NCBI GenBank assembly: GCA_030016755.1
Contig: JASEJC010000001.1
Coordinates: 4,883 to 68,882, forward strand
Direction of reading: 5' to 3'
DNA: 64,000 nucleotides
Origin: Candidatus Hodarchaeaceae archaeon
GTDB lineage: Archaea > Hadarchaeota > Hadarchaeia > Hadarchaeales > Hadarchaeaceae
A program made the translations under genes and the position numbers. The first letter of the stretch is position 1. Every line of letters begins with the position of its first letter. This document shows positions 12,073-50,902 of this stretch, piece by piece. The notes beneath the pieces were generated by a model. The model did no database searches. It saw nothing but the letters and a program-made list of their open reading frames with translations, and was not told where the DNA came from.

Positions 12073-12940
12073 TCGACTTCTCAAGCTTTAGGAGCAGAGC
12101 CTTTGCGCCCTCCAAGTTTGCCGTTTTACCCCTACACCGCGAACACGCTGCTGCTGCACGCTCGATATCTTTGCGGAAGCTCTCGTATGGTTTTGCCGCC
12201 TCAATTATCCTGTTCACAAGTGCCCGGATTTGCTTTGCCGGCACTTCAAATGTGCCACAGAAGGGGCACCCTGCCAACTCCTCAACGGCGCTGACCCTCA
12301 TTAAGGCCCGGTCTGGTCCCGATGGGTGCCGCTTCTTGACCAGGCGAACCGCATCCTCTGGGCAAACCTCCTCACAGCTGGCGCAACTGATGCACTTATC
12401 GTACATGAATTTCACCGTTCGCTTGTTGCCCTCGTCCGCCAGCTCTATCGCGGATGTTGGGCATGCCTTTTCACATGCGCCGCAGCCCGTACACTTCTCT
12501 GAATCAAGCTCGGGCTGCCCCCTGAAACCCTTGGGGGCCAGCCAGCGTCTGTACTTGACACCCATGGTCCGAGCTACCCCCTCCCCTATCGCCTGGGGAC
12601 TGGGTGGGCAACCAAGGACATACAAATTAACCGGGATGAACTTGTCCGTTGGTTCAAGAGCACTGTACGATTTCTGGAAAATCCCGCTTGATAGAGCACA
12701 CGTACCAACTGCAATCACGGTTTTGGGTTCCCTGAGCTTGTTGTAAACTTCCTTGAGGGGTCCCGCCATTTTTGCGCTGACGACTCCAACAACGAGGAGC
12801 ATATTCGCTTTCTCGGGCTCGTCCACTATTCTCGCTTTGAGATTTCCAATACCGAACCTCTCAGCCAGTGCACACACTACCTCGATGTCGCAGCCATTGC
12901 AGGAGCCAACGTTCAGGCGGTAAACTCCTATCTCGCTCAC
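12044..12940 (-). CDS. [NiFe]-hydrogenase small subunit (NuoB/MbhJ/EchC-like) fused to a 2x[4Fe-4S] ferredoxin domain and a CxxC-x37-CxxC tail
   Basis: GSCNGCDIEV, GTCALSSG and GCPPSP are the NuoB-type cluster ligands. CTGCGACEKACP and CISCASCEEVCP follow, then CPFC...CSRC. GTG start at 12940. Confidence 0.85.
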   Translation of the reverse strand: MSEIGVYRLNVGSCNGCDIEVVCALAERFGIGNLKARIVDEPEKANMLLVVGVVSAKMAGPLKEVYNKLREPKTVIAVGTCALSSGIFQKSYSALEPTDKFIPVNLYVLGCPPSPQAIGEGVARTMGVKYRRWLAPKGFRGQPELDSEKCTGCGACEKACPTSAIELADEGNKRTVKFMYDKCISCASCEEVCPEDAVRLVKKRHPSGPDRALMRVSAVEELAGCPFCGTFEVPAKQIRALVNRIIEAAKPYESFRKDIERAAAACSRCRGKTANLEGAKALLLKLEKSIIRAAPGSF

Positions 12941-12951
12941 CTCAACCCGTC

Positions 12952-14277
12952 CTAAATTCCCGTACTAAACTGTACAGGCAATTTTTCTGGCTCCATCCCC
13001 AGCTTCGCTTGGGCTACAAGCCCATCCACTGGGGACTGCATCTGCCAGCAGTCGGCGGGGACGTGCCTCGCCCCATCCTTAGCTATGTTCCAGCTCGCCA
13101 CCAAGTGACGGCTGGCCTCGAACCCGCAAGCTTTGCACCTGTAGGTGTGCCCATTCGGCCTGTTGTACCGGCCACATATCGGGCAGTCCTTCGACTTGTG
13201 GTAGTTGCTGACCTCCACCGTTGGCAGTCCTTGTCGCGCCACCTTGTACTCGGCATAGAACTGGAACTTTCGGAAAGGCCACTGGTTGAGCCTCCTGCGC
13301 ATGTCCTTCCGCAGGGCCCTGCCGTTCTTCGACTTGCGCTTCGAGCGCATGAAACCACGAATTCCCTTGATACCCCCGAAGGTGACCGCGACTCGCTCTC
13401 GCTCGGCAATCTTGGCGATCTGTTTGCTGACAACGTGTAGGATCTGGTTAGTGCGGTTGCGCTCCCTTCGCCAGTACTTCGCCTTGAGCCTGCGCTTCTG
13501 CACCGGTCGCTGCGGTGGCGTATCCAGCTTTCGCTGAATCGATTTGCGCTTGAGCTGTGACGAGTGCCTTATCGCGGGGAGCTTTGAGACATCGAGACTG
13601 ATGTGTTTTGGCTGTTCGTTTGGCTTCAGGATGGTCAAATCAACGCTCTGCTCGTTGATGTCTATGCCGCAGATGCCCTCCGTTGGCCTCGGTTCCACCT
13701 CGCACTTGAACGGCACAAAAACATTGGCTCGATCTTTGAATAGCGAGATCGTGATTTCCCCGACTTTCTTTTTACCTTCCCGCCAGTCGCGGAGGTATCG
13801 GAGTACGTGGTGCTCGGTCACCACGAGCGGAAGCCAAAGGTACTCCCCGCGACGGATTCTGATTTGAATCACATTTCCGCAGAACCTGCAAACGCCAGTT
13901 TGGTTTCTATCGCCCCAGAGTTCTAGGCGCATTGTCCGCGCTTTGTAGGCGGGTGGCTTCTCCGGGTTCGCCTGTCCTTGGCGACAGAGCTTCCGCCACG
14001 AGCGGAGCGTCTGCGTAGCCATCTGCCCGGCCGAGTGGAACCAGTGCGTCGCTAGATCAAAGCGCGACTTCCACTCCTCGTAGGCGACGTGATGTAGCGA
14101 GGCGCGGGAAGTAACCTTATGTTCGAGGCACTTCTGGATGTAGAAGTTAACCGACTCCGCGAACTTGCCGAGGAGATCGCCCAGCAGCTCGCGCTTTCGC
14201 CCAGTCAGCGGAGGTGTAATGAATCTAGCGGAGCTGACGGACTGCACATCTTCTACCTCCGATGCGTTTTCTACCAT
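12952..14277 (-). CDS. TnpB-like (IS200/IS605 OrfB family) protein with apparently degenerate RuvC motifs II and III
   Basis: GICGIDINE (RuvC-I), zinc ribbon CPICG...CKACG and C-terminal WNIA are present. The expected IVxEDL reads VAVTFGGI, and the expected RDxNAAxNI reads RHLVASWNI. The track ORF extends to GTG 14412. ATG 14277 (MVENAS) lies about 45 nt downstream of a TATA-like box. Confidence 0.85.
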   Translation of the reverse strand: MVENASEVEDVQSVSSARFITPPLTGRKRELLGDLLGKFAESVNFYIQKCLEHKVTSRASLHHVAYEEWKSRFDLATHWFHSAGQMATQTLRSWRKLCRQGQANPEKPPAYKARTMRLELWGDRNQTGVCRFCGNVIQIRIRRGEYLWLPLVVTEHHVLRYLRDWREGKKKVGEITISLFKDRANVFVPFKCEVEPRPTEGICGIDINEQSVDLTILKPNEQPKHISLDVSKLPAIRHSSQLKRKSIQRKLDTPPQRPVQKRRLKAKYWRRERNRTNQILHVVSKQIAKIAERERVAVTFGGIKGIRGFMRSKRKSKNGRALRKDMRRRLNQWPFRKFQFYAEYKVARQGLPTVEVSNYHKSKDCPICGRYNRPNGHTYRCKACGFEASRHLVASWNIAKDGARHVPADCWQMQSPVDGLVAQAKLGMEPEKLPVQFSTGI

Positions 14278-14320
14278 TTTCTGCCCAAGCCACTTTGGGG
14301 GAGGGGGGTCTCCGAAAGTA

Positions 14321-14338
14321 ATATATAAACTATTTAAA
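14321..14338 (-). promoter_or_regulatory. TATA-like box (minus strand CCTTTAAATAGTTTATATAT) upstream of the TnpB-like ORF
   Basis: AT-rich box in an otherwise GC-rich spacer, about 45 nt upstream of ATG 14277. Confidence 0.4.
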
Positions 14339-14449
14339 GGGCTCCCAGGCACGACCTGATTGTCTTCTAGAGCCCATTTTTGGTGCCTTTTTTCGCCATT
14401 TTTCAGGGGCACCGAAAGTATTCCCCGAATGATACGGTCTGGTACGGTT

Positions 14450-15595
14450 TTATGTAGCAGCTACAACACCCCTCAGCTCATCTAAAGTGACCCGCCTGCT
14501 CCTTCCCGTCCGCTCGTCCACGACAGTGACGCGATTCGTACAGGAGATGCAACGGTCCAGGCTCTCCAAAATCACTGGGAAGTCGGCTAGTTTTTGTTCG
14601 CGGAGCATCTCCACGACGGCTCGATCGTTCATGTAAGTAGGTGGCCTGAGCTTAACCCGTTCTGGATAATTTGTTCCGTTCGACCTCACATAATAAATAA
14701 GCTCGCCTCGCGGTGCCTCCACTCTGCTGAAGTCCTCCCCAACCAGCGGCTCCCTAATATCCACGCTAATTTCACCTTTAGGCATGCGCTCGATTAGCTG
14801 TCGGATAATTTTCACGCTTTCCAAAGTCTCCCTCGCCCGAACCAAAGCCCTTGAAAAAACATCGCCCTCCTCTTCCGTGGGGATTTCGAAATCCACTTCC
14901 CCATAGGCGGCATACGGGTCGTCTTTCCGTATATCGCTTTCAACACCTGATGCTCTGAGCACGGGGCCCACTACACCGTATGCCCTTGCTTTACCCCTAG
15001 GTAGGGGACCGAGCCCCGAAAGCGTGGGCGCTGCATTCCTAAGCTCTCTTGAAATGTCATCAGTGAGGGTTTCGAGGTCACCCATCAGAGACTTCACTGC
15101 TGCCAACATCCTCTTGGTCACGTCGCGCCTGACCCCACCTATCGAATTTATCGAAAAGTGCACCCGGTTGCCGCAGATGGACTCGATTAAATCCATCAAG
15201 CTCTCACGAGCGTTGATGATTTTAATGAACTGACCTTCGTTGTGTAGTGTATGAAAAAACAACCCAAACCACATGTAATGACTGTGCAAACGATCCATCT
15301 CAAAAACTAGTGACCTGATATTTCTCGCCCGCGCCGGAACTTCCGCGCCGAAAATCTTTTCCACCGCTTGGCAATATGCCGTGGAGTGGGCTTGGGAGCA
15401 CAACCCGCATACGCGCTCAGCCAGGAAAACATTTTGAACAAATGACTTCGATTCCATCAGGCGCTCAATCCCACGATGCGTATAGCCTTGCCTAATTTCC
15501 ACATCAGTAATTTTGCCATCGCGCACAGTAATCTCGTATAACTCTGGCTCCAGCAACAAGGGGTGATATGGCCCTACCTTTACCACATCGAACAT
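14450..15595 (-). CDS. [NiFe]-hydrogenase large subunit, group-4-like (EchE/MbhL/NuoD fold)
   Basis: N-terminal Ni-binding pair RVCGLCSQAH and C-terminal pair DRCISCTNR are both present. VGPYHPLLLEP and GYTHRGIE are family motifs. Confidence 0.9.
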   Translation of the reverse strand: MFDVVKVGPYHPLLLEPELYEITVRDGKITDVEIRQGYTHRGIERLMESKSFVQNVFLAERVCGLCSQAHSTAYCQAVEKIFGAEVPARARNIRSLVFEMDRLHSHYMWFGLFFHTLHNEGQFIKIINARESLMDLIESICGNRVHFSINSIGGVRRDVTKRMLAAVKSLMGDLETLTDDISRELRNAAPTLSGLGPLPRGKARAYGVVGPVLRASGVESDIRKDDPYAAYGEVDFEIPTEEEGDVFSRALVRARETLESVKIIRQLIERMPKGEISVDIREPLVGEDFSRVEAPRGELIYYVRSNGTNYPERVKLRPPTYMNDRAVVEMLREQKLADFPVILESLDRCISCTNRVTVVDERTGRSRRVTLDELRGVVAAT

Positions 15596-30100: not shown

Positions 30101-33100
30101 TTATTTATTCTTGCCCTTGGCGTTGCCTCGCCCCTGATTACCGCCACCTTGGTCTAGGTTTCCACCACGTTGCCCTGGCCCTGCCCGCCACCCTGATTCT
30201 CCTTGACCTTGGCCCGGAGATTGACCGCCCTGCTCGGGAGGCGTTTGGGGTGGGCCTTGTCCCTGCCCTTGGTTTCCACCCTGCCCCGGCGTCCCGCCCG
30301 ATTGGCCTGGCGGAACTTCTGGCCTGTTCCCGTGACCTTGGCCCTGTCCCTCACTAGGTTTGATAACCCGGATGGTGTCGCTTCCTCTGAACGGTGCGGA
30401 GCCCCACTTGCCGATTACCGTCAGCTCAACATTGTCACCAACGCTCACCAGCCCTTGCACGGCCGAGCGATCGAACTTAACCATCAGGTCTGGCACGCCG
30501 TCGCCGTCGTGGTCACCGATCTCGGTTGGCCAAGGCTCAGCGGATAGGATTCCCTCGAGGAAGATGTCGCCCTCGAGAGCCACGGTGCTCACGTCGATTT
30601 TCGCCACATCAAGGCCGCCCGGCAGCTCGATGTAGCAGGTTATCCAGCGGCCTTGGCTACGGAGGTTTAGAGTTTCAGGGTCGATGTCGATCATAGCGGG
30701 TATCAAGGTGGCACACCTGGCGTCGGCTTCCGGTGGCGGCCCCTCGACGTTTCCCGCCACATCGCAGGCTATAGAGTAGAACTCGTAGAAGCCGTGGCCT
30801 GCTGGTATGTCGAACGACCACTCGTAGGGCTCCTCGTTGTCGGCCCCGAACGATGTCCAATCGCCCCAAGTTGAATTGTCGAGCGAATGGCGGTAGTAAA
30901 GCTCGACGCTCGCGACGCCGCTCAGTCCATCCGATGCTGTGGCGGTAATTGCAAAAGGCGTCAAGGTCTGCCAGTAGGGCTCGATCGGATCGACCGAGGA
31001 GACCGGTGGAGTAGTGTCAACCCCGATCCTCTCATCGGGCTCCTCGGGTGCCTTCTCGACATTTCCGGCAACGTCTGCGGCGATCGAGTAGAGTTCGTAG
31101 TAACCATTGCCTTGGGACGGGTCGAACTGCCAAGCGTACGGGGACTGGTCATCAGCGGCGTAAAGCGTCCAGCCCGACCAGTTGAGGTTATCGGGCGAGT
31201 AACGGTAGTATAATCTGACATCCCTCATTCCGCTTGGTACGGCACCGTTCGGCGGGACTGGATCGTTTGCCGCGGCAGTCACTTCAATTGGAAGCATCGA
31301 AGCGTTGTGCCAGTGGGGTTCGATTGAGTTAAGGCTGGAAATGGGGGGCAGCGTGTCGACGCCCGCCTGTGCATCGGCACTCTCCGGGGCCGCCTCACGG
31401 TTTCCGGCTCGGTCCGCCGCAACCGAGTAGAACTCATAGAAGCCATCGCCAGCGGGGGCATCGAATGTCCAAGAGTAAGGTTCGGAATTGTCTATGTCGT
31501 AAAGCGCCCAGTCGCTCCATGTTGAGTTATCAGCGGAGTATCGGTACCACAGTTCAATGTTTTCGGCTCCACTCAGCGCGTCGGAAACCGTGGCGGTTAC
31601 CTGGAACGGGACCGTCCCCGCGTTCTGCCACAATGGGCTGACTGGGTCAACGGAAGATAATGGTGGCATAGTGTCAACGCCGCACATCGCGCCCGTAACC
31701 ACGGCCTTCACGGTTGGAGTGTACTTCCAGCCGCCATCCGTGTAGATGCTCTCGCCGTTCCACACCGCGTCCCATATGGTTCCAATCCCAGAGGCAACGG
31801 ACATCAATCCTCCTGAGGGTAACTCATACCTCCAGATCTTGCCATCTTGCCACACAAGGTACAGATATCCATCACCGGGTATCATTATCGAAACTATCGC
31901 CACGGGATACGGGTATCCGGGCGCTTGCACGGGTGTGACGCCGGAGATCGTCTTCAATCTGACCCAGCTATCGGAAGAAATCGTATACCTCCACAGTTCC
32001 AATGAATAATATGTCCCCTCAAGGAGCGCATAAATGTGATCCCGTCCATCCCACGTCAAGTCCGCTGCCAGCATGCTAGACGGGAACGATAGGGTATCCC
32101 ACCTGTTGCCCGAGATGGAGTACCGCAAGAAGATCCCACCGTTGTCCAAGGTGTAAATGTAATCGTCGCCAGTCCATACCAGTGCCCCCCTGTGAATCCC
32201 GATGGGAGTTGATGCCATGCTCTCCCAGCGGTTTGCTGAGATGGAATATCGCCAGAAGTCATGCTTGGGGTCGAAGTAGTAGCCTCTAAGGGCGTAGAGA
32301 TGCCCATCTGCCCAAATCAAGCTGTTGAAGCTCGCCCCTTCAGCCGGCATAGCGGTCAGGTGCGTCCACGTATTGTTGGAGATAGAGTAACTCCAGAGTT
32401 CGCTCCATGTGCGCATGTATACCTTGTCGCCCCCATCCCAAGCCAGCCCCCTCCAGCCCTCGGTGGATGCCGGAGCCGAGATGGAAGAGAACGTTCCATC
32501 AACATGAACTACTGAGACAGCCCCCCTCATCCCCTCCGCGTTGCCAGCGCGATCTGTTGCGACGCTTGTGAACTCGTAGTACCCGTCCCCCGCAGGAGAA
32601 TCGAACTTCCAAGTCCAAGGCTCGTTGTCATCGATGCCGAGCGACCGCCACTCGGACCAGCTTGAGTTATCTGGCGAGTAGCGGTAGAAAAGCTCAACGT
32701 TACCGACCCCTGAGAGGATATCCGACGCTTTTGCGGTCACCTCAAGCGGGAGGGTCTCATCATTTTGCCAATAAGGCGTTATTTGGTCGAGGTAAGATTC
32801 TGGAGGCGTGGTGTCCACACCAGCTCTAGCAGTCGCCTTCGGCCATGTTATGTGTGTGTCCACATTCACATCGCCGAATAGGTCAAACCATACTGTGTAA
32901 ATGTAGTCGGATGTATCAGATCCAGCAAACTCGCTTCTGATGTTCCCATCCACAGAGATGACCTCAATGTTACCAATTCGAACAGGTTCGGGTAACCATA
33001 TCCGACCTCTGAAACCTTCTAGCTCCTCCACCCATTCATCAACAGGCTCAGGAATCCAGTGCCGGCCCCATATTTCTTTTATTTCCATCCTTACCCTGAT

Positions 33101-36100
33101 ATCGACGTCCATCATGGTTACATCTATCCACGTGGGCCACCAACCATTCTCCCAATATCCGTAAAAGTTCTCGCCTTCGATCTCGATCCAAATCCCATAA
33201 GTTCCATTCGGGTTCCCGGGATTTCCTCCGTACTCATACTCTGGGGCCTCGACCTCATATGGTCCGCGCTCAAAAGAGGCCCCTGCCTCACCCCTAAGGC
33301 TTCCTATGAGCGTTCTCGATTCGACCACGGGCTGCTCGAGGTTCCCCGCCCTGTCAACGGCGAGGGTGCCGAACTCGTAGTAACCGTCCTCCTCGGGGGC
33401 GTCGAATGAGCACTCCCATGGCCACTCGTTATCAACACCGTAAAGCCTCCAGTCGTTCCAGCCCATGTTGTCATTTGAGTACCTGTAGAACAGCATGACC
33501 TCTTTAACGCCGCTCCGGTCGTCCGTCGCGGTTGCCGTGATAGTGAAAGGCAGCTCACTTTGCCAGTAGGGTGAGATCGTATCTACAGATGAGGTGGGCG
33601 GGACGGTATCGATGTAGACGTATGTGGCCCCCGACCAATCGCTCCAAGCCCCCGCCCCGTTCTGTGCGCGGACCTTGATGTAATAAATGCCATCAGCTAA
33701 AGTTGGATGATAGCTAGTATCCGTTGTGTAAAACGTGTCTTCCGACCAAGAGCGGTATACCTCATATTGATTCACCCCAGTATCAGGATCGCTTGCTACC
33801 CAGTACCAATGCGGTGAATTGTGGTTCGACCATTCTCTGCCGCAGTGATCCTCACCGACTATCGGGGTAGTTGGAGGCGTTGTATCCACGACTAAGGTGT
33901 AAGTGCCGTCACCGCTAATTTTACGAACCTCGATATAGTAATAACCCGACATCTCCGCAGTATAGATTATCTCCTCGCTCATGTGGCCTAGATGTGTGGA
34001 ACTCGCGATTAAGTTCTGTTCAGGATCGTATAGATGAAGGTCGAAATCACATTCGTGGTTTTCTTTTATGCCAATCGTTTTGCCCTTTTCTGCCCCAATT
34101 TGATAAAAGTCCTTTATATCCACCCCTCTTAAGCTGCCTGTGTATCTCCCCGAAAGTATCCTCCTTGGGCAATCAAGATTATCGCCTGCATCGCCTGCGA
34201 ATCCCGCATCAAATTGTTGTTCGATCCTAATCATCTCCGTGTCTAAATAACTTACCCCGGCGTATTTCGCTCTTGCTCTCAGGAGATAAGTGCCGCTTGG
34301 AGCATTTGCCGGCGCAAATATTGACTCCCTATAATACGCAGAACTGCCTGATCCGAGGGTAGTCCTATCAATAAGTCCGCCACTGATGGTCTGGCCATTA
34401 CTGTCCATGAACTCCAAGTATACATCAACTCGCTCTAAAGTGCGTGGTAAGTTATTACGCACATCGAAGAGAACGTAAAACTCATCGCCTGCCATAACTT
34501 CTGAAGGGGCCTCTAATAAATTAACGGTCAGCTCATTAATGACCCTCATCGGCATTTGTGGATCACCTAGCAAAACTGTTGTCAGTATCAGACCCCGATT
34601 ATTTGGATCACCGACCCCTTTCTCTTGTAAGTACTGCCGCTTTGCGGCATCTAAACACACCGCCGGTTGGTACCGATGTTCTGTAAAAAATTTCTGCCAA
34701 AAAAGAACATCAAGTTTTCCGCTTAAATCCTCATTAAGACCAGGTTCAAAAAGAACTCCGTGCACGTATGGTGCCTCTCTAGAGTTACCTACATAAGCGA
34801 TTGCAGTTTTTCCTTCGACAAAGGGACTGTATAGAGAATATTCACCTATCGTTGGTTTATCGTAATCGAAACTCGCAGAATAACATGCTACTACATACAT
34901 CAAAAAACCTTCTGAATTTGTAAGTTGAGCTACCGTGCATTCTCGGTAAAATGGAAAAAAGTCCTTTTTTCCTTTCTTTCCTTTTGCCGATAACTCAATT
35001 TCGTTTCCATGTGAAAACGAGTTAATGATTCCGGGTTCAAGTTGATTTATGGCATTCACTACGTTTATCTCTGTTAAATTCGCATCTTCGTCATAAAGTG
35101 TATGAGTGTCAACCTGCCCCCTTGCGAAATTAGCTATGGGGGCTTTAACTTCTGAACCATAATGGTCCCTAGTCCAACTTTGGTATATCCAGCCGCCGAG
35201 TAAAAGGAAATCCTCAACCGCCGGGCGATTAGCACCATACTCTGTGATCTTTTTAATAGATGGGGTTGGTACCCTGCTGACGTGGACCTCTGGTATCCAA
35301 TCTACTTCATCAAAAATTATCGATCCTAAAAAGGAAGCAAATTCACCGAAATTGCTATTGGTATTGTAATCGTCCCAAGTTCCATCCAAACAAGCATAAT
35401 AAGAATCTGCTGGCGCAAACGCTCGCCAAACCTCTCCGCGTTTCTTTGCTTGTTCTTCGAATATCCCATACAAGCGTACGTATCTTGTAGGAAGTTCCCA
35501 GTAATTGTCAAGCGCTGGTGGCTGCGGTGTCGCATCATAGGACGTTGGCCTATCGGCTGGATCCACGTCACCATTCAACAACACCCACTTGACATTTTTA
35601 TTAAGATAATACCATTTAATGCAATTTCTTATTTTTTCCGGTATATCTCTACCTTGGTAAGTATTTGTGATGCCGAGTGTGACATGGTCAAAAATCACGT
35701 TCCCGTCTTCGCTTTGATCTACCGTGACAACGTATGTTTCTAACCCCCAATCCTCTTTTTGCCGTACAAAGGCGTTCAAGTCCGCATCAACTAACTTTGG
35801 TCGCGTCACGATGAGGTAACCATCATCATTTGAGTTCTCTTGGGAGGCTAAATCATCATGTTTGATTTCAGACTCTAGACTATTATATGGAGGGTCTACT
35901 TCTACATACACCTTAATTTGTTCATAAAATACCATCTCCCCTACTGAAGGACGATATTGAATCGGGTAAACCCAGATGCCAATTACTAGCGACCCTCCTT
36001 CCCCACCCACCACCATAGCTTCCCCCAAACGTCCGGGATAGAATAAACCTGAATTATAAACGTTCCCATCCAGAAATAAAACCGTTGATTGTGATGTTTG

Positions 36101-36499
36101 TGCTGGTATAATGTAACTACCTTCAGTAAGTTGAAGTGTAATAGGGTCACTTGTTTCAAAACTAACGCTTACTATCTGTGGCAGCTCTTCTAACAAACAA
36201 CCGTCAGCCCAAGGAACTTTCAACAAATGCCCTTTGTAAGGCAACATCGGCTTGCCTTGAGCATTTAAGTAGGTACAATTTTCAATTCTCACAATGCTAT
36301 AATTTTCGTTTTCTTCGATTCGAGGAAAATCAAACGTAAATGTGTATTCAACTATTACGTTTTGGTTGTCTGATATAGTCTCGGCTGCCATGCTCACTTG
36401 AGAAGTGCCATTTTCTACGAGCGTGAAACCAGAAGTTAAAGGAATAAAACAAAGCAATAAAAAACCAAATATTGGTAGAATCCTAATAATCCATTTGAT
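30101..36499 (-). CDS. Giant secreted/surface protein: C25-type cysteine peptidase + CARDB-like + PPC domain + repeated Ig-like modules + Kelch-like propeller + Gly/Gln/Pro tail
   Basis: Uninterrupted 2118-aa track ORF (TTG 36457). The in-frame upstream codons encode a signal-peptide-like KWIIRILPIFGFLL beginning at ATC 36499. The domain evidence is listed under the separate features. Confidence 0.9.
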   Translation of the reverse strand: MKWIIRILPIFGFLLLCFIPLTSGFTLVENGTSQVSMAAETISDNQNVIVEYTFTFDFPRIEENENYSIVRIENCTYLNAQGKPMLPYKGHLLKVPWADGCLLEELPQIVSVSFETSDPITLQLTEGSYIIPAQTSQSTVLFLDGNVYNSGLFYPGRLGEAMVVGGEGGSLVIGIWVYPIQYRPSVGEMVFYEQIKVYVEVDPPYNSLESEIKHDDLASQENSNDDGYLIVTRPKLVDADLNAFVRQKEDWGLETYVVTVDQSEDGNVIFDHVTLGITNTYQGRDIPEKIRNCIKWYYLNKNVKWVLLNGDVDPADRPTSYDATPQPPALDNYWELPTRYVRLYGIFEEQAKKRGEVWRAFAPADSYYACLDGTWDDYNTNSNFGEFASFLGSIIFDEVDWIPEVHVSRVPTPSIKKITEYGANRPAVEDFLLLGGWIYQSWTRDHYGSEVKAPIANFARGQVDTHTLYDEDANLTEINVVNAINQLEPGIINSFSHGNEIELSAKGKKGKKDFFPFYRECTVAQLTNSEGFLMYVVACYSASFDYDKPTIGEYSLYSPFVEGKTAIAYVGNSREAPYVHGVLFEPGLNEDLSGKLDVLFWQKFFTEHRYQPAVCLDAAKRQYLQEKGVGDPNNRGLILTTVLLGDPQMPMRVINELTVNLLEAPSEVMAGDEFYVLFDVRNNLPRTLERVDVYLEFMDSNGQTISGGLIDRTTLGSGSSAYYRESIFAPANAPSGTYLLRARAKYAGVSYLDTEMIRIEQQFDAGFAGDAGDNLDCPRRILSGRYTGSLRGVDIKDFYQIGAEKGKTIGIKENHECDFDLHLYDPEQNLIASSTHLGHMSEEIIYTAEMSGYYYIEVRKISGDGTYTLVVDTTPPTTPIVGEDHCGREWSNHNSPHWYWVASDPDTGVNQYEVYRSWSEDTFYTTDTSYHPTLADGIYYIKVRAQNGAGAWSDWSGATYVYIDTVPPTSSVDTISPYWQSELPFTITATATDDRSGVKEVMLFYRYSNDNMGWNDWRLYGVDNEWPWECSFDAPEEDGYYEFGTLAVDRAGNLEQPVVESRTLIGSLRGEAGASFERGPYEVEAPEYEYGGNPGNPNGTYGIWIEIEGENFYGYWENGWWPTWIDVTMMDVDIRVRMEIKEIWGRHWIPEPVDEWVEELEGFRGRIWLPEPVRIGNIEVISVDGNIRSEFAGSDTSDYIYTVWFDLFGDVNVDTHITWPKATARAGVDTTPPESYLDQITPYWQNDETLPLEVTAKASDILSGVGNVELFYRYSPDNSSWSEWRSLGIDDNEPWTWKFDSPAGDGYYEFTSVATDRAGNAEGMRGAVSVVHVDGTFSSISAPASTEGWRGLAWDGGDKVYMRTWSELWSYSISNNTWTHLTAMPAEGASFNSLIWADGHLYALRGYYFDPKHDFWRYSISANRWESMASTPIGIHRGALVWTGDDYIYTLDNGGIFLRYSISGNRWDTLSFPSSMLAADLTWDGRDHIYALLEGTYYSLELWRYTISSDSWVRLKTISGVTPVQAPGYPYPVAIVSIMIPGDGYLYLVWQDGKIWRYELPSGGLMSVASGIGTIWDAVWNGESIYTDGGWKYTPTVKAVVTGAMCGVDTMPPLSSVDPVSPLWQNAGTVPFQVTATVSDALSGAENIELWYRYSADNSTWSDWALYDIDNSEPYSWTFDAPAGDGFYEFYSVAADRAGNREAAPESADAQAGVDTLPPISSLNSIEPHWHNASMLPIEVTAAANDPVPPNGAVPSGMRDVRLYYRYSPDNLNWSGWTLYAADDQSPYAWQFDPSQGNGYYELYSIAADVAGNVEKAPEEPDERIGVDTTPPVSSVDPIEPYWQTLTPFAITATASDGLSGVASVELYYRHSLDNSTWGDWTSFGADNEEPYEWSFDIPAGHGFYEFYSIACDVAGNVEGPPPEADARCATLIPAMIDIDPETLNLRSQGRWITCYIELPGGLDVAKIDVSTVALEGDIFLEGILSAEPWPTEIGDHDGDGVPDLMVKFDRSAVQGLVSVGDNVELTVIGKWGSAPFRGSDTIRVIKPSEGQGQGHGNRPEVPPGQSGGTPGQGGNQGQGQGPPQTPPEQGGQSPGQGQGESGWRAGPGQRGGNLDQGGGNQGRGNAKGKNK
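30104..30358 (-). repeat. C-terminal low-complexity Gly/Gln/Pro-rich tail ending GNAKGKNK
   Basis: aa ~2034-2118: GQGQGHGN...GQGGNQGQGQGPPQTPPEQGGQSPGQGQG. No C-terminal TM or PGF-type sorting signal. Confidence 0.8.
30713..31678 (-). repeat. Three tandem ~106-113-aa repeat modules (VDTxPPxSSV...SGV...YRYSxDNxxWxxW...PYxWxFDxPxGxGxYEFYSxAxDxAGNxE)
   Basis: aa 1594-1915 of the track ORF. Two further diverged copies lie at nt 33302-33613 and 32498-32821. Confidence 0.85.
31688..32461 (-). repeat. Kelch-like beta-propeller (about six blades) inserted between repeat modules of the giant protein
   Basis: Recurrent blade pattern: ...LWSYSISNNTW..., FWRYSISANRW, FLRYSISGNRW, LWRYTISSDSW, IWRYELPSGG. 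Each is preceded by a G-x-hydrophobic-Y strand. Confidence 0.7.
33887..34204 (-). other. Pre-peptidase C-terminal (PPC)-like domain of the giant protein
   Basis: GDAGDN...DIKDFYQIGAEKGKTIGI...DFDLHLYDPEQNLIASS...GYYYIEVRKISGDGTYTLVV follows the PPC pattern. Confidence 0.65.
34538..35830 (-). other. Peptidase C25 (gingipain/caspase-fold) catalytic region of the giant protein
   Basis: Domain opening YLIVTRPKLVDADLNAFVRQKEDWGLETYVV. Candidate catalytic His in NSFSHGNE (aa 483) and Cys in YVVACYSASF (aa 525). Confidence 0.7.
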
Positions 36500-50809: not shown

Positions 50810-50902
50810 TGGTGGGGTCGCCGAGATTCGAACTCGGGTCACTGGCTTTTTCGCCCGAGGGCCCCGAAGCCAATAGGATAGACCAGGCTACCCCACGACC
50901 CC
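50810..50902 (-). tRNA. tRNA-Pro(CGG) with a 15-nt canonical (37/38) intron and an encoded CCA
   Basis: Hand-folded. Acceptor GGGGTCG/CGACCCC, anticodon stem TTGGC/GCCAG, loop TTCGGG-[GCCCTCGGGCGAAAA]-A. T arm CCGAG-TTCGAAT-CTCGG, then ACCA. Confidence 0.85.

Follow-up and report, generated by a model that had tools for sequence, protein, structure and literature searches.

The stretch of DNA analyzed here (the window) comprises 64,000 nucleotides (nt) of contig JASEJC010000001.1 from the archaeal assembly GCA_030016755.1 and carries, on its minus strand, a hydrogenase operon with a tnpB gene in its midst. Upstream of this gene, on the same strand, lie the genes for the [NiFe] group-4 large subunit (14450-15595), an HdrB-like CCG protein, and a NuoC-like protein, and the gene downstream of it, with a GTG start codon at 12940, encodes a NuoB-type hydrogenase small subunit with two 4Fe-4S motifs. 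An earlier inspection of these letters (the original prediction) had pointed to two stacked hairpins in the last part of tnpB as the candidate scaffold of an omega-RNA, with a guide running into the start of the small-subunit gene. Our analysis established the boundaries of the element, a conserved covarying fold, the affiliation with the IS607 family, and a reconstruction of the empty site. Judging from these comparisons, we consider it very probable (roughly 0.85) that positions 13084-12947 of the minus strand represent the omega-RNA (right-end element RNA, reRNA) scaffold of an IS607-family TnpB element, 12947-14468, inserted between hydrogenase genes.

The tnpB gene can be read in two lengths. 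NCBI annotates a protein of 441 amino acids (P0001, 100% identical over 441 amino acids), and the mechanically called open reading frame (ORF) is longer, with 486 codons (12952-14412) and a GTG start at 14412. By its domain matches, this ORF is a TnpB, as had been proposed: it scored 103 bits with the NCBIfam model guided_TnpB (cut-off, 100), matched Pfam Cas12f1-like_TNB (PF07282) with an E value of 1.5e-13, and matched the TnpB structure 9nzp in the PDB with an E value of 1.3e-7. Its relatives formed about 94 protein clusters at 45-85% identity, mainly from metagenome-assembled genomes (MAGs) of Hadesarchaea/Hadarchaeota and Bathyarchaeia, and one copy per genome was found in the species-representative collection.

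Conserved RNA fold at the 3' end of tnpB

The fold was derived with RNAalifold and by explicit pair counting on an alignment of 39 sequences from distinct related elements. It comprises the following features:

12947 to 13084, minus strand: structured RNA, candidate omega-RNA scaffold, 138 nt; covariance model R1, 158.9 bits; 5' end approximate
13072-13066 with 13060-13054, minus strand: helix H1, GGCG.GG / CC.CGCC; 96.6% paired; 2 of 6 pairs change on both sides
13048-13044 with 12991-12987, minus strand: helix H2, CUGGC / GCCAG; 99% paired; 3 of 5 pairs covary
13036-13029 with 13002-12995, minus strand: helix H3, GUCCCCAG / CUGGGGAU; 8 bp; 96.5% paired
13024-13019 with 13015-13010, minus strand: helix H4, UGGGCU / AGCCCA; 6 bp; 98.7% paired
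12984-12977 with 12961-12954, minus strand: helix H5, AAAUUGCC / GGGAAUUU; 93.6% paired; terminal hairpin (H5/H6)
13034 to 13053, minus strand: hairpin GACUGC-UGGCAGAU-GCAGUC of the original prediction; window-specific alternative pairing outside the conserved fold

The scaffold takes in the final 44 codons of tnpB together with its stop codon and ends 5 nt past the latter. H2, H3, and H4 form a three-tier stem (12987 to 13048), in which 15 of the 19 pairs change on both sides, 12 of the 14 in H3 and H4 among them. H5 encloses an inner GUAC/GUAC stem, and the final base of its 3' arm is also the first of the stop codon; its pair 124-160 switches from A-U to U-A in 16 sequences, and one G-G mismatch is present in the window copy. 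Over all helices, 93.6% of the cells were paired, compared to 80.1% in shuffles and 33-46% with the partners slid. Changes on both sides were found at 22 of 37 pairs, and the covariation score (0.43 versus 0.19) was attained by none of 500 shuffles. Since G-U pairs clearly exceeded A-C mismatches (93 versus 19), the fold is assigned to the sense-strand RNA, and since the encoded TnpB tail is variable where the helices covary, the constraint that keeps the pairing acts on the nucleic acid and not on the protein. A 120-nt stretch of the window folded better than 200 of 200 shuffles (z score, -4.6). The 138-nt scaffold alone had a modest z score of -2.4, and folding energy by itself is thus not decisive.

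These data bear differently on the two hairpins proposed originally. The nested stems, CCCCAG (13034-13029) with CTGGGG (13002-12997) around GGGCT-TGT-AGCCC (13023-13011), are present and belong to a structure (13036-12995 around 13024-13010) that is conserved and covarying in the 39 elements, so that the compensatory changes in homologs named as a check were found there. They were absent from the first hairpin. Its perfect 6-bp inverted repeat, GACTGC (13053-13048) and GCAGTC (13039-13034) with an 8-nt loop, does exist in the sequence but is not conserved: the share of paired cells, 66.7%, equals that of the shuffles, one of the pairs can form in 3 of the 39 sequences, and real covariation is absent. 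This hairpin is also missing from the minimum-energy fold of the window, which includes H2, and its loop CUGGC is the 5' arm of H2, pairing with GCCAG in all relatives. Two helices had escaped the original prediction, the terminal hairpin (12984-12954) and the upstream hairpin (13072-13054).

About one-third of the elements carry an insertion of 9-13 nt in the H5 loop (columns 130-141 of alignment A2), for example, L003, L004, L008, L009, L053, L060, and L064. This insertion adds codons to the TnpB tail (e.g., ...PCQSGVRFDTGF), and hence RNA and protein tail expand together. A 5' extension of the structure (13067-13246) had a consensus energy of -7.8 kcal/mol and little covariation and was dropped. 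A hairpin over the RuvC-III codons occurred in both sub-clades in different registers and was left out of the helix count.

Independent support came from more distant relatives. The covariance model R1, built from the 138-nt alignment of the close clade, had a single match in the window and matched over its full length at the tnpB 3' ends of 34 relatives with 31-38% protein identity (E values from 1e-14 to 1e-5), none of which had taken part in building the model. In these relatives, H2 was paired to 100%, H3 to 98%, and H5 to 95%, and nearly all pairs covaried, including 8 of 8 in H5. H4 was absent, which makes it an addition specific to the close clade. The RNAs of the distant relatives likewise end in ...ACGG.

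Element boundaries and family

The element and its parts were delimited as follows:

12947 to 14468, minus strand: complete IS607-family element without tnpA, 1522 bp; left end TGTTGTAGCTGCTACATAAAAC, right end ...TTTAGGACGG
14447 to 14468, minus strand: left-end motif TGTTGTAGCTGCTACATAAAAC; the same motif lies upstream of tnpA in tnpA-bearing relatives
14469 to 14472, minus strand: GGGG directly 5' of the left end, candidate transposon-adjacent motif (TAM), with the recombination core in its last two G
14321 to 14338, minus strand: TATA-box-like sequence TTTAAATAGTTTATATAT, 44-61 nt upstream of the tnpB ATG; candidate archaeal promoter
12952 to 14277, minus strand: tnpB coding sequence, 441 amino acids (NCBI annotation); ATG at 14277, stop codon TAG at 12954-12952
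12927 to 12946, minus strand: candidate guide GUUGAGGUGAGCGAGAUAGG, the first 20 nt of the flank past the right end; length approximate

In the aligned 3' ends of the 39 elements, DNA conservation crosses the stop codon and halts exactly after ...GGGAWTTTAGGACGG, and the next 20 nt past GGACGG were unrelated in all 39 loci. The right end was therefore placed at window position 12947. Both end motifs were present in 19 full elements, whose flanks vary from locus to locus and which fall into two size classes, 1.36-1.54 kb with tnpB only and 1.95-1.98 kb with tnpA and tnpB. GGG stands 5' of the left end in 17 of these 19 elements, and the right end reads ...ACGG. In the tnpA-containing elements, the left end starts with TGATGTAACTGCTACATAAAAC and is preceded by GGG; in the window, the left end (14468-14447) is preceded by GGGG.

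In many relatives, a serine-recombinase gene, tnpA, is situated directly upstream of tnpB and overlaps its start. It was adjacent in at least 17 close loci, including L001-L005, L055, and L058, and the TnpA protein of L002 scored 200 bits with the NCBIfam model transpos_IS607. Because the partner in the relatives is a serine recombinase matching this model, the family is IS607 and not IS200/IS605. Membership in the latter (Y1/HUH TnpA, A/T-rich target) was ruled out by this partner and by the junction motif GGG. The window element itself has no tnpA and has lost this gene.

No second copy of the element was detected within the window by blastn, tblastn, or the covariance model. Additional TTYAGGACGG motifs in L004, L005, L064, and L066 were short chance matches, with one covariance model match per locus. 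L072 and L106 are the two ends of one 43-kb metagenomic contig, Ga0078972_1003866, and both carry a member of the family, with 89% identity between the two across the 269 bp they share; thus, at least some genomes hold more than one diverged copy. In two different species, an element without tnpA lies between tRNA-Glu and tRNA-Leu(TAA) (L006:5660-7403 and L007:2844-4681), with TnpB proteins 63-65% identical to that of the window. Both have the same right flank (CGCTAGTTTTATTGC), which places the guide region over a TATA-like TTTTATT about 30 nt upstream of tRNA-Leu. This insertion looks old and vertically inherited.

Insertion between the hydrogenase genes

The large-subunit ORF takes its last codons (VVAAT) and its TAA stop codon (14452-14450) from the left-end motif and in the window now ends in ...DELRGVVAAT*. 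Removing the element together with one GG core in silico joined ...GAGCTGAGGGG to GTTGAGGTGAGC... and yielded a reading frame encoding ...DELRGLR, with a TGA that overlaps the GTG of the small-subunit gene. This reconstructed joint aligned without gaps to the uninterrupted operon L131 (small subunit, 71% identical), in which the two subunit genes share an ATGA overlap and ...DELRRLK* closes the large subunit. By this reconstruction, the element landed in the 4-nt GTGA stop/start overlap of the translationally coupled large- and small-subunit genes, and both frames stay open. The insertion occurred by GG-core recombination, with the element oriented as the operon. A clean insertion into a 4-nt gene overlap accounts for the odd gene order at this locus, a "transposase" within a hydrogenase operon.

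At the related TnpB loci L001-L012 and L023, no hydrogenase genes lie nearby (0 of these loci), and the idea of TnpB as a conserved member of hydrogenase operons was rejected. On the sister contig L130, the small-subunit gene still adjoins the element. L130 (Hadesarchaea, GCA_030018345.1) is 98.3% identical to the window from 14472 to 8044, that is, beginning at the element's left end and running across the small subunit and beyond. Its left flank (L130:1-2472) is wholly different and encodes a PRPP synthetase, a radical-SAM protein, a metallo-beta-lactamase, and an MJ1316-like ORF. This difference goes back either to recombination of two copies of the element or to a chimeric assembly at a repeat. 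At both places (window 14450-14470 and L130:2462-2491), the upstream ORF runs in frame into the left end of the element and thereby gains the same new tail and stop, ...R-GVVAAT*. The same fusion frame in two different left flanks may be a coincidence.

Candidate guide and proposed mechanism

As claimed originally, 11 nt separate the tnpB stop codon from the GTG at 12940, and a guide beginning at 12946 would overlap the 5' end of the small-subunit gene. GUUGAGGUGAGCGAGAUAGG consists of the last 6 intergenic nt, the GTG (12940-12938), and 11 bases of the small-subunit gene, covering codons 2-4 and the greater part of codon 5. With up to 3 mismatches allowed, the window still contains this sequence only once. 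The placement of an omega-RNA across the tnpB 3' end up to the right end, likewise part of the original prediction, is borne out by the covarying fold, the sharp boundary at 12947, and the R1 matches in the 34 distant relatives.

Transcription of tnpB and the omega-RNA might start from the TATA-like box at 14338-14321. This sequence occurs once in the window, and a comparable A/T-rich box stands at the equivalent place in L007. As in the IS607 systems characterized so far, the transcript through the tnpB end would fold into three modules of stem-loops, namely H1, the stack of H2, H3, and H4, and H5, and TnpB would bind the folded scaffold. The 16-20 nt past the right end, from 12946 onward, and thus most or all of GUUGAGGUGAGCGAGAUAGG, would act as the guide, and GGG(G) at the left junction is the probable TAM. 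The RNA would thus be made, be bound by TnpB, and guide DNA cleavage. The natural guide target might be the empty site, in which GGGG stands before GTTGAGGTGAGC...; excision of the element would restore this site, and cutting it would favor reinstatement of the element. The occupied site would be spared, as the guide-matching sequence there is preceded by ACGG and not by GGG.

The guide overlaps the small-subunit start because of where the element landed. This overlap is a by-product of the insertion and does not indicate that the gene is regulated. Since the guide has the sense of the mRNA, it cannot pair with the small-subunit mRNA. Processing of a read-through operon transcript into the omega-RNA could possibly lower small-subunit expression.

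Counterarguments and the RuvC active site

A number of observations weigh against this interpretation. The existence and the ends of the RNA are predicted from the sequence, and the alignment of the distant relatives was fitted to R1, which biases its pair counts towards the structure. With Rfam families, RAGATH-18 and IS605-orfB motifs among them, the scaffold had no match, either in a scan of the whole window at the gathering score or in one of the locus at E values up to 10, and consequently there is no independent curated model. The covariance-model check advised in the original prediction thus failed with Rfam and succeeded with R1, built here, at the tnpB 3' ends of the distant relatives. 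For a pseudoknot between the 5' region and the 3' end of the scaffold, as expected from ISXfa1, the candidate is CUAAG with UUUAG (columns 22-26 and 161-165 of alignment A2); it consists of nearly invariant columns and would compete for bases with the lower end of H5. A search among the relatives for near-identical copies in different flanks gave none, as all pairs with at least 93% identity represent the same locus, and there is therefore no sign of recent transposition.

The remaining points concern the catalytic residues of TnpB. The RuvC-I residue Asp206 is conserved in the window protein. At the RuvC-II position, glutamate is replaced by Gly301 (VTFGGIKG; codon 13375-13377, minus strand), and 110 of 113 relatives have Glu there. 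The sister copy on L130, which is 98% identical (6 of 441 residues differ), carries Glu at 301, and Gly301 is private to the window copy. It could be a recent inactivating mutation or an error in the MAG consensus. At RuvC-III, His391 aligned with the Asp of 9nzp and 8hr5 (NADRNAS, NADYNAA), which is taken to be the catalytic one in view of the active sites of Cas12a and Cas12f. Throughout the family, His (or Gln) occupies this position, where solved TnpB/Cas12f structures have Asp. A neighboring Asp (DRH motif) is present in 40 clusters, and Ser takes its place in the 52 clusters of the window's clade. In the window motif SRH (codons 389-391, 13105-13113), it is Ser389 that replaces this Asp; overall, about 55 clusters, tnpA-carrying elements among them, have Ser, Gly, or Asn in place of the Asp two residues upstream.

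An intact RuvC Asp-Glu-Asp triad is hence not found in the window TnpB; another residue may serve in catalysis instead. An alternative Glu of the Fanzor type, six residues before the zinc finger, does not rescue Gly301, as by eye Asn or Pro stands there. To judge by these residues, the window copy is probably nuclease-impaired and may bind yet not cut. The RuvC-III deviation of the family would suggest either a rearranged active site or a mobile clade that lost cleavage. Single RuvC deviations were reported to be frequently spurious in a study of TldRs, repressors that resemble TnpB but are nuclease-dead (PMC10705468).

Alternative explanations

The pairing might reflect DNA-level signals of the right end, such as binding or synapsis sites of a serine recombinase, and not an RNA. 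The region is indeed subterminal at the right end, the GTACGG of the terminal hairpin has its reverse complement, CCGTAC, close to the left end, and end sequences of the IS607 type serve more than one function (bioRxiv 10.1101/2023.11.20.567912). However, the substrate of serine recombinases is double-stranded DNA, in which pairing within a strand plays no role, and selection at this site keeps the pairing and not the sequence, with an excess of G-U pairs over A-C mismatches that is strand-specific and typical of RNA. Moreover, the structure reaches 138 nt into the ORF. We consider this explanation unlikely as a replacement for an omega-RNA, while a dual role of the last 20-30 nt is possible.

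Similarly unlikely is a variant in which the window's clade, about 50 clusters with Ser-Arg-His at RuvC-III, would consist of mobile IS607 elements whose TnpB performs RNA-guided DNA binding without cutting, and in which the ribonucleoprotein (RNP) on the small-subunit start would modulate hydrogenase expression. If this were true, the RNP could, in the window, occupy or process the operon transcript at the small-subunit start.

Very unlikely, in our view, is domestication of TnpB as a nuclease-dead, TldR-like RNA-guided regulator with its guide on the small-subunit start. Such a role would agree with the lack of the RuvC-II Glu and the canonical RuvC-III Asp in the window TnpB, with a guide region that covers the start codon of the small subunit, and with a sister genome that keeps the element next to this gene despite a different left flank. 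It is at odds with the intact transposon ends and GGG junction, with the private nature of Gly301, which is Glu in the 98%-identical sister copy, and with the loci L001-L012 and L023, which have no hydrogenase genes nearby; at all other loci, the flanks are different. In cis, the DNA that matches the guide comes after ACGG, a form that IS607 TnpBs discriminate against. In addition, the guide shares the sense of the mRNA, and single RuvC deviations are, as mentioned, frequently spurious (PMC10705468).

Still less probable is that the structure serves as a 3' stabilizer or terminator of the tnpB mRNA, or as a translational-coupling element for the downstream gene, and provides no guide-RNA scaffold. 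While its position at the 3' end of an ORF and a U-rich stretch (AAUUU or AUUUU) beside the hairpin would fit, a 138-nt fold of three modules kept from 85% down to 31% protein identity exceeds what termination needs, and its end coincides with the transposon boundary in every case, regardless of the downstream sequence. A terminator scan found nothing at the scaffold, with a bacterial promoter/terminator tool that is uninformative for an archaeon.

Finally, that the hairpins are functionless chance inverted repeats in G+C-rich coding sequence fits the first proposed hairpin, neither conserved nor covarying, and the similar z scores of the 138-nt scaffold (-2.4) and its antisense strand (-2.6), but is refuted for H2-H5 and next to excluded overall by 22 of 37 pairs changing on both sides with 93.6% of the cells paired in the close clade, by the same helices with new sequences at 31-38% protein identity, and by pairing kept where the encoded protein tail varies.

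Other observations in the window

The only tRNA of the window (50810-50902, minus strand, about 90 nt) is probably an intron-containing archaeal tRNA; ARAGORN leaves its anticodon unnamed ('cg'). By far the longest ORF spans 30101-36457 on the minus strand (2118 codons). NCBI labels the window proteins 'Candidatus Hodarchaeaceae', an Asgard family, and the sister contig and all close relatives are labeled Hadesarchaea/Hadarchaeota. One of the two taxon labels is probably a mix-up of similar names.

Comparison with known systems

The omega-RNA interpretation finds its closest counterparts in bacterial IS607 elements. CboTnpB of the Clostridium botulinum CboIStron recognizes the TAM TGGG, ignores its own right end TCGG, and uses a scaffold ending in ...UCGG, and the IS607 transposase TnpA(S) recombines at a GG core (bioRxiv 10.1101/2023.11.20.567912). 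The TnpB of ISXfa1 from Xylella fastidiosa works with a GGG TAM and with a reRNA about 150 nt long that has a pseudoknot in addition to three stem-loops (PMC10711439). As in both systems, the RNA at our locus would be encoded across the tnpB 3' end up to the right end, with a length of about 140-150 nt and three stem-loop modules. The elements also share the GG core at both junctions, GGG beside the left end, and CGG at the right end, and the last bases of the scaffold, ...ACGG here, resemble the ...UCGG of CboTnpB. A further likeness is the serine-recombinase transposase with an N-terminal helix-turn-helix, which is the partner in the family studied here. Thus, the features of IS607 omega-RNAs that were found comprise 3'-end encoding, a covarying fold, a non-conserved flank after the scaffold, GG-core junctions, and the serine-recombinase tnpA of the family. 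In contrast to ISXfa1 and CboIStron, the hosts are archaeal (Hadesarchaea and Bathyarchaeia MAGs), the RNA has no detectable sequence similarity to the bacterial RNAs, no group I intron is present, the window copy lacks tnpA, and RuvC-III has His instead of Asp.

The IS200/IS605 element ISDra2 of Deinococcus radiodurans, the subject of work by Karvelis and by Altae-Tran in 2021, reportedly derives its guide RNA from the tnpB 3' end and flank, and omega-RNAs of this type are said to support homing to, or retention against, the empty donor site. Elements of IS200/IS605 reportedly employ a Y1 transposase, single-stranded DNA hairpin ends, and A/T-rich TAMs, and their guide is said to begin at the first flanking base without a fixed core dinucleotide. 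The likeness to ISDra2 thus lies in the origin of the guide RNA from the tnpB 3' end and flank, whereas the serine recombinase and the GGG motif set our family apart.

In bacteria, reRNAs derived from RAGATH-18, structured RNAs downstream of or overlapping IS607 tnpB, guide DNA cleavage (PMC11061315). Since no Rfam family reached an E value of 10 on the scaffold, the latter does not belong to the RAGATH-18 RNA family. TldRs have lost the transposon ends and are stably linked to particular non-transposon genes (PMC10705468). The window TnpB resembles them in deviating at two of three RuvC positions and in a guide region over a gene start but differs in its intact ends, its non-conserved hydrogenase linkage, and one deviation that is private to this copy.

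The probable archaeal IS607 omega-RNA is a new example of a known system and involves no new mechanism. Our comparison provides a covariation-backed structure and a covariance model for an archaeal IS607 TnpB guide RNA outside Rfam, along with the exact element ends and a probable GGG motif, which may be used in annotating genomes of Hadesarchaea and Bathyarchaeia and in mining compact RNA-guided proteins from thermophilic archaea.

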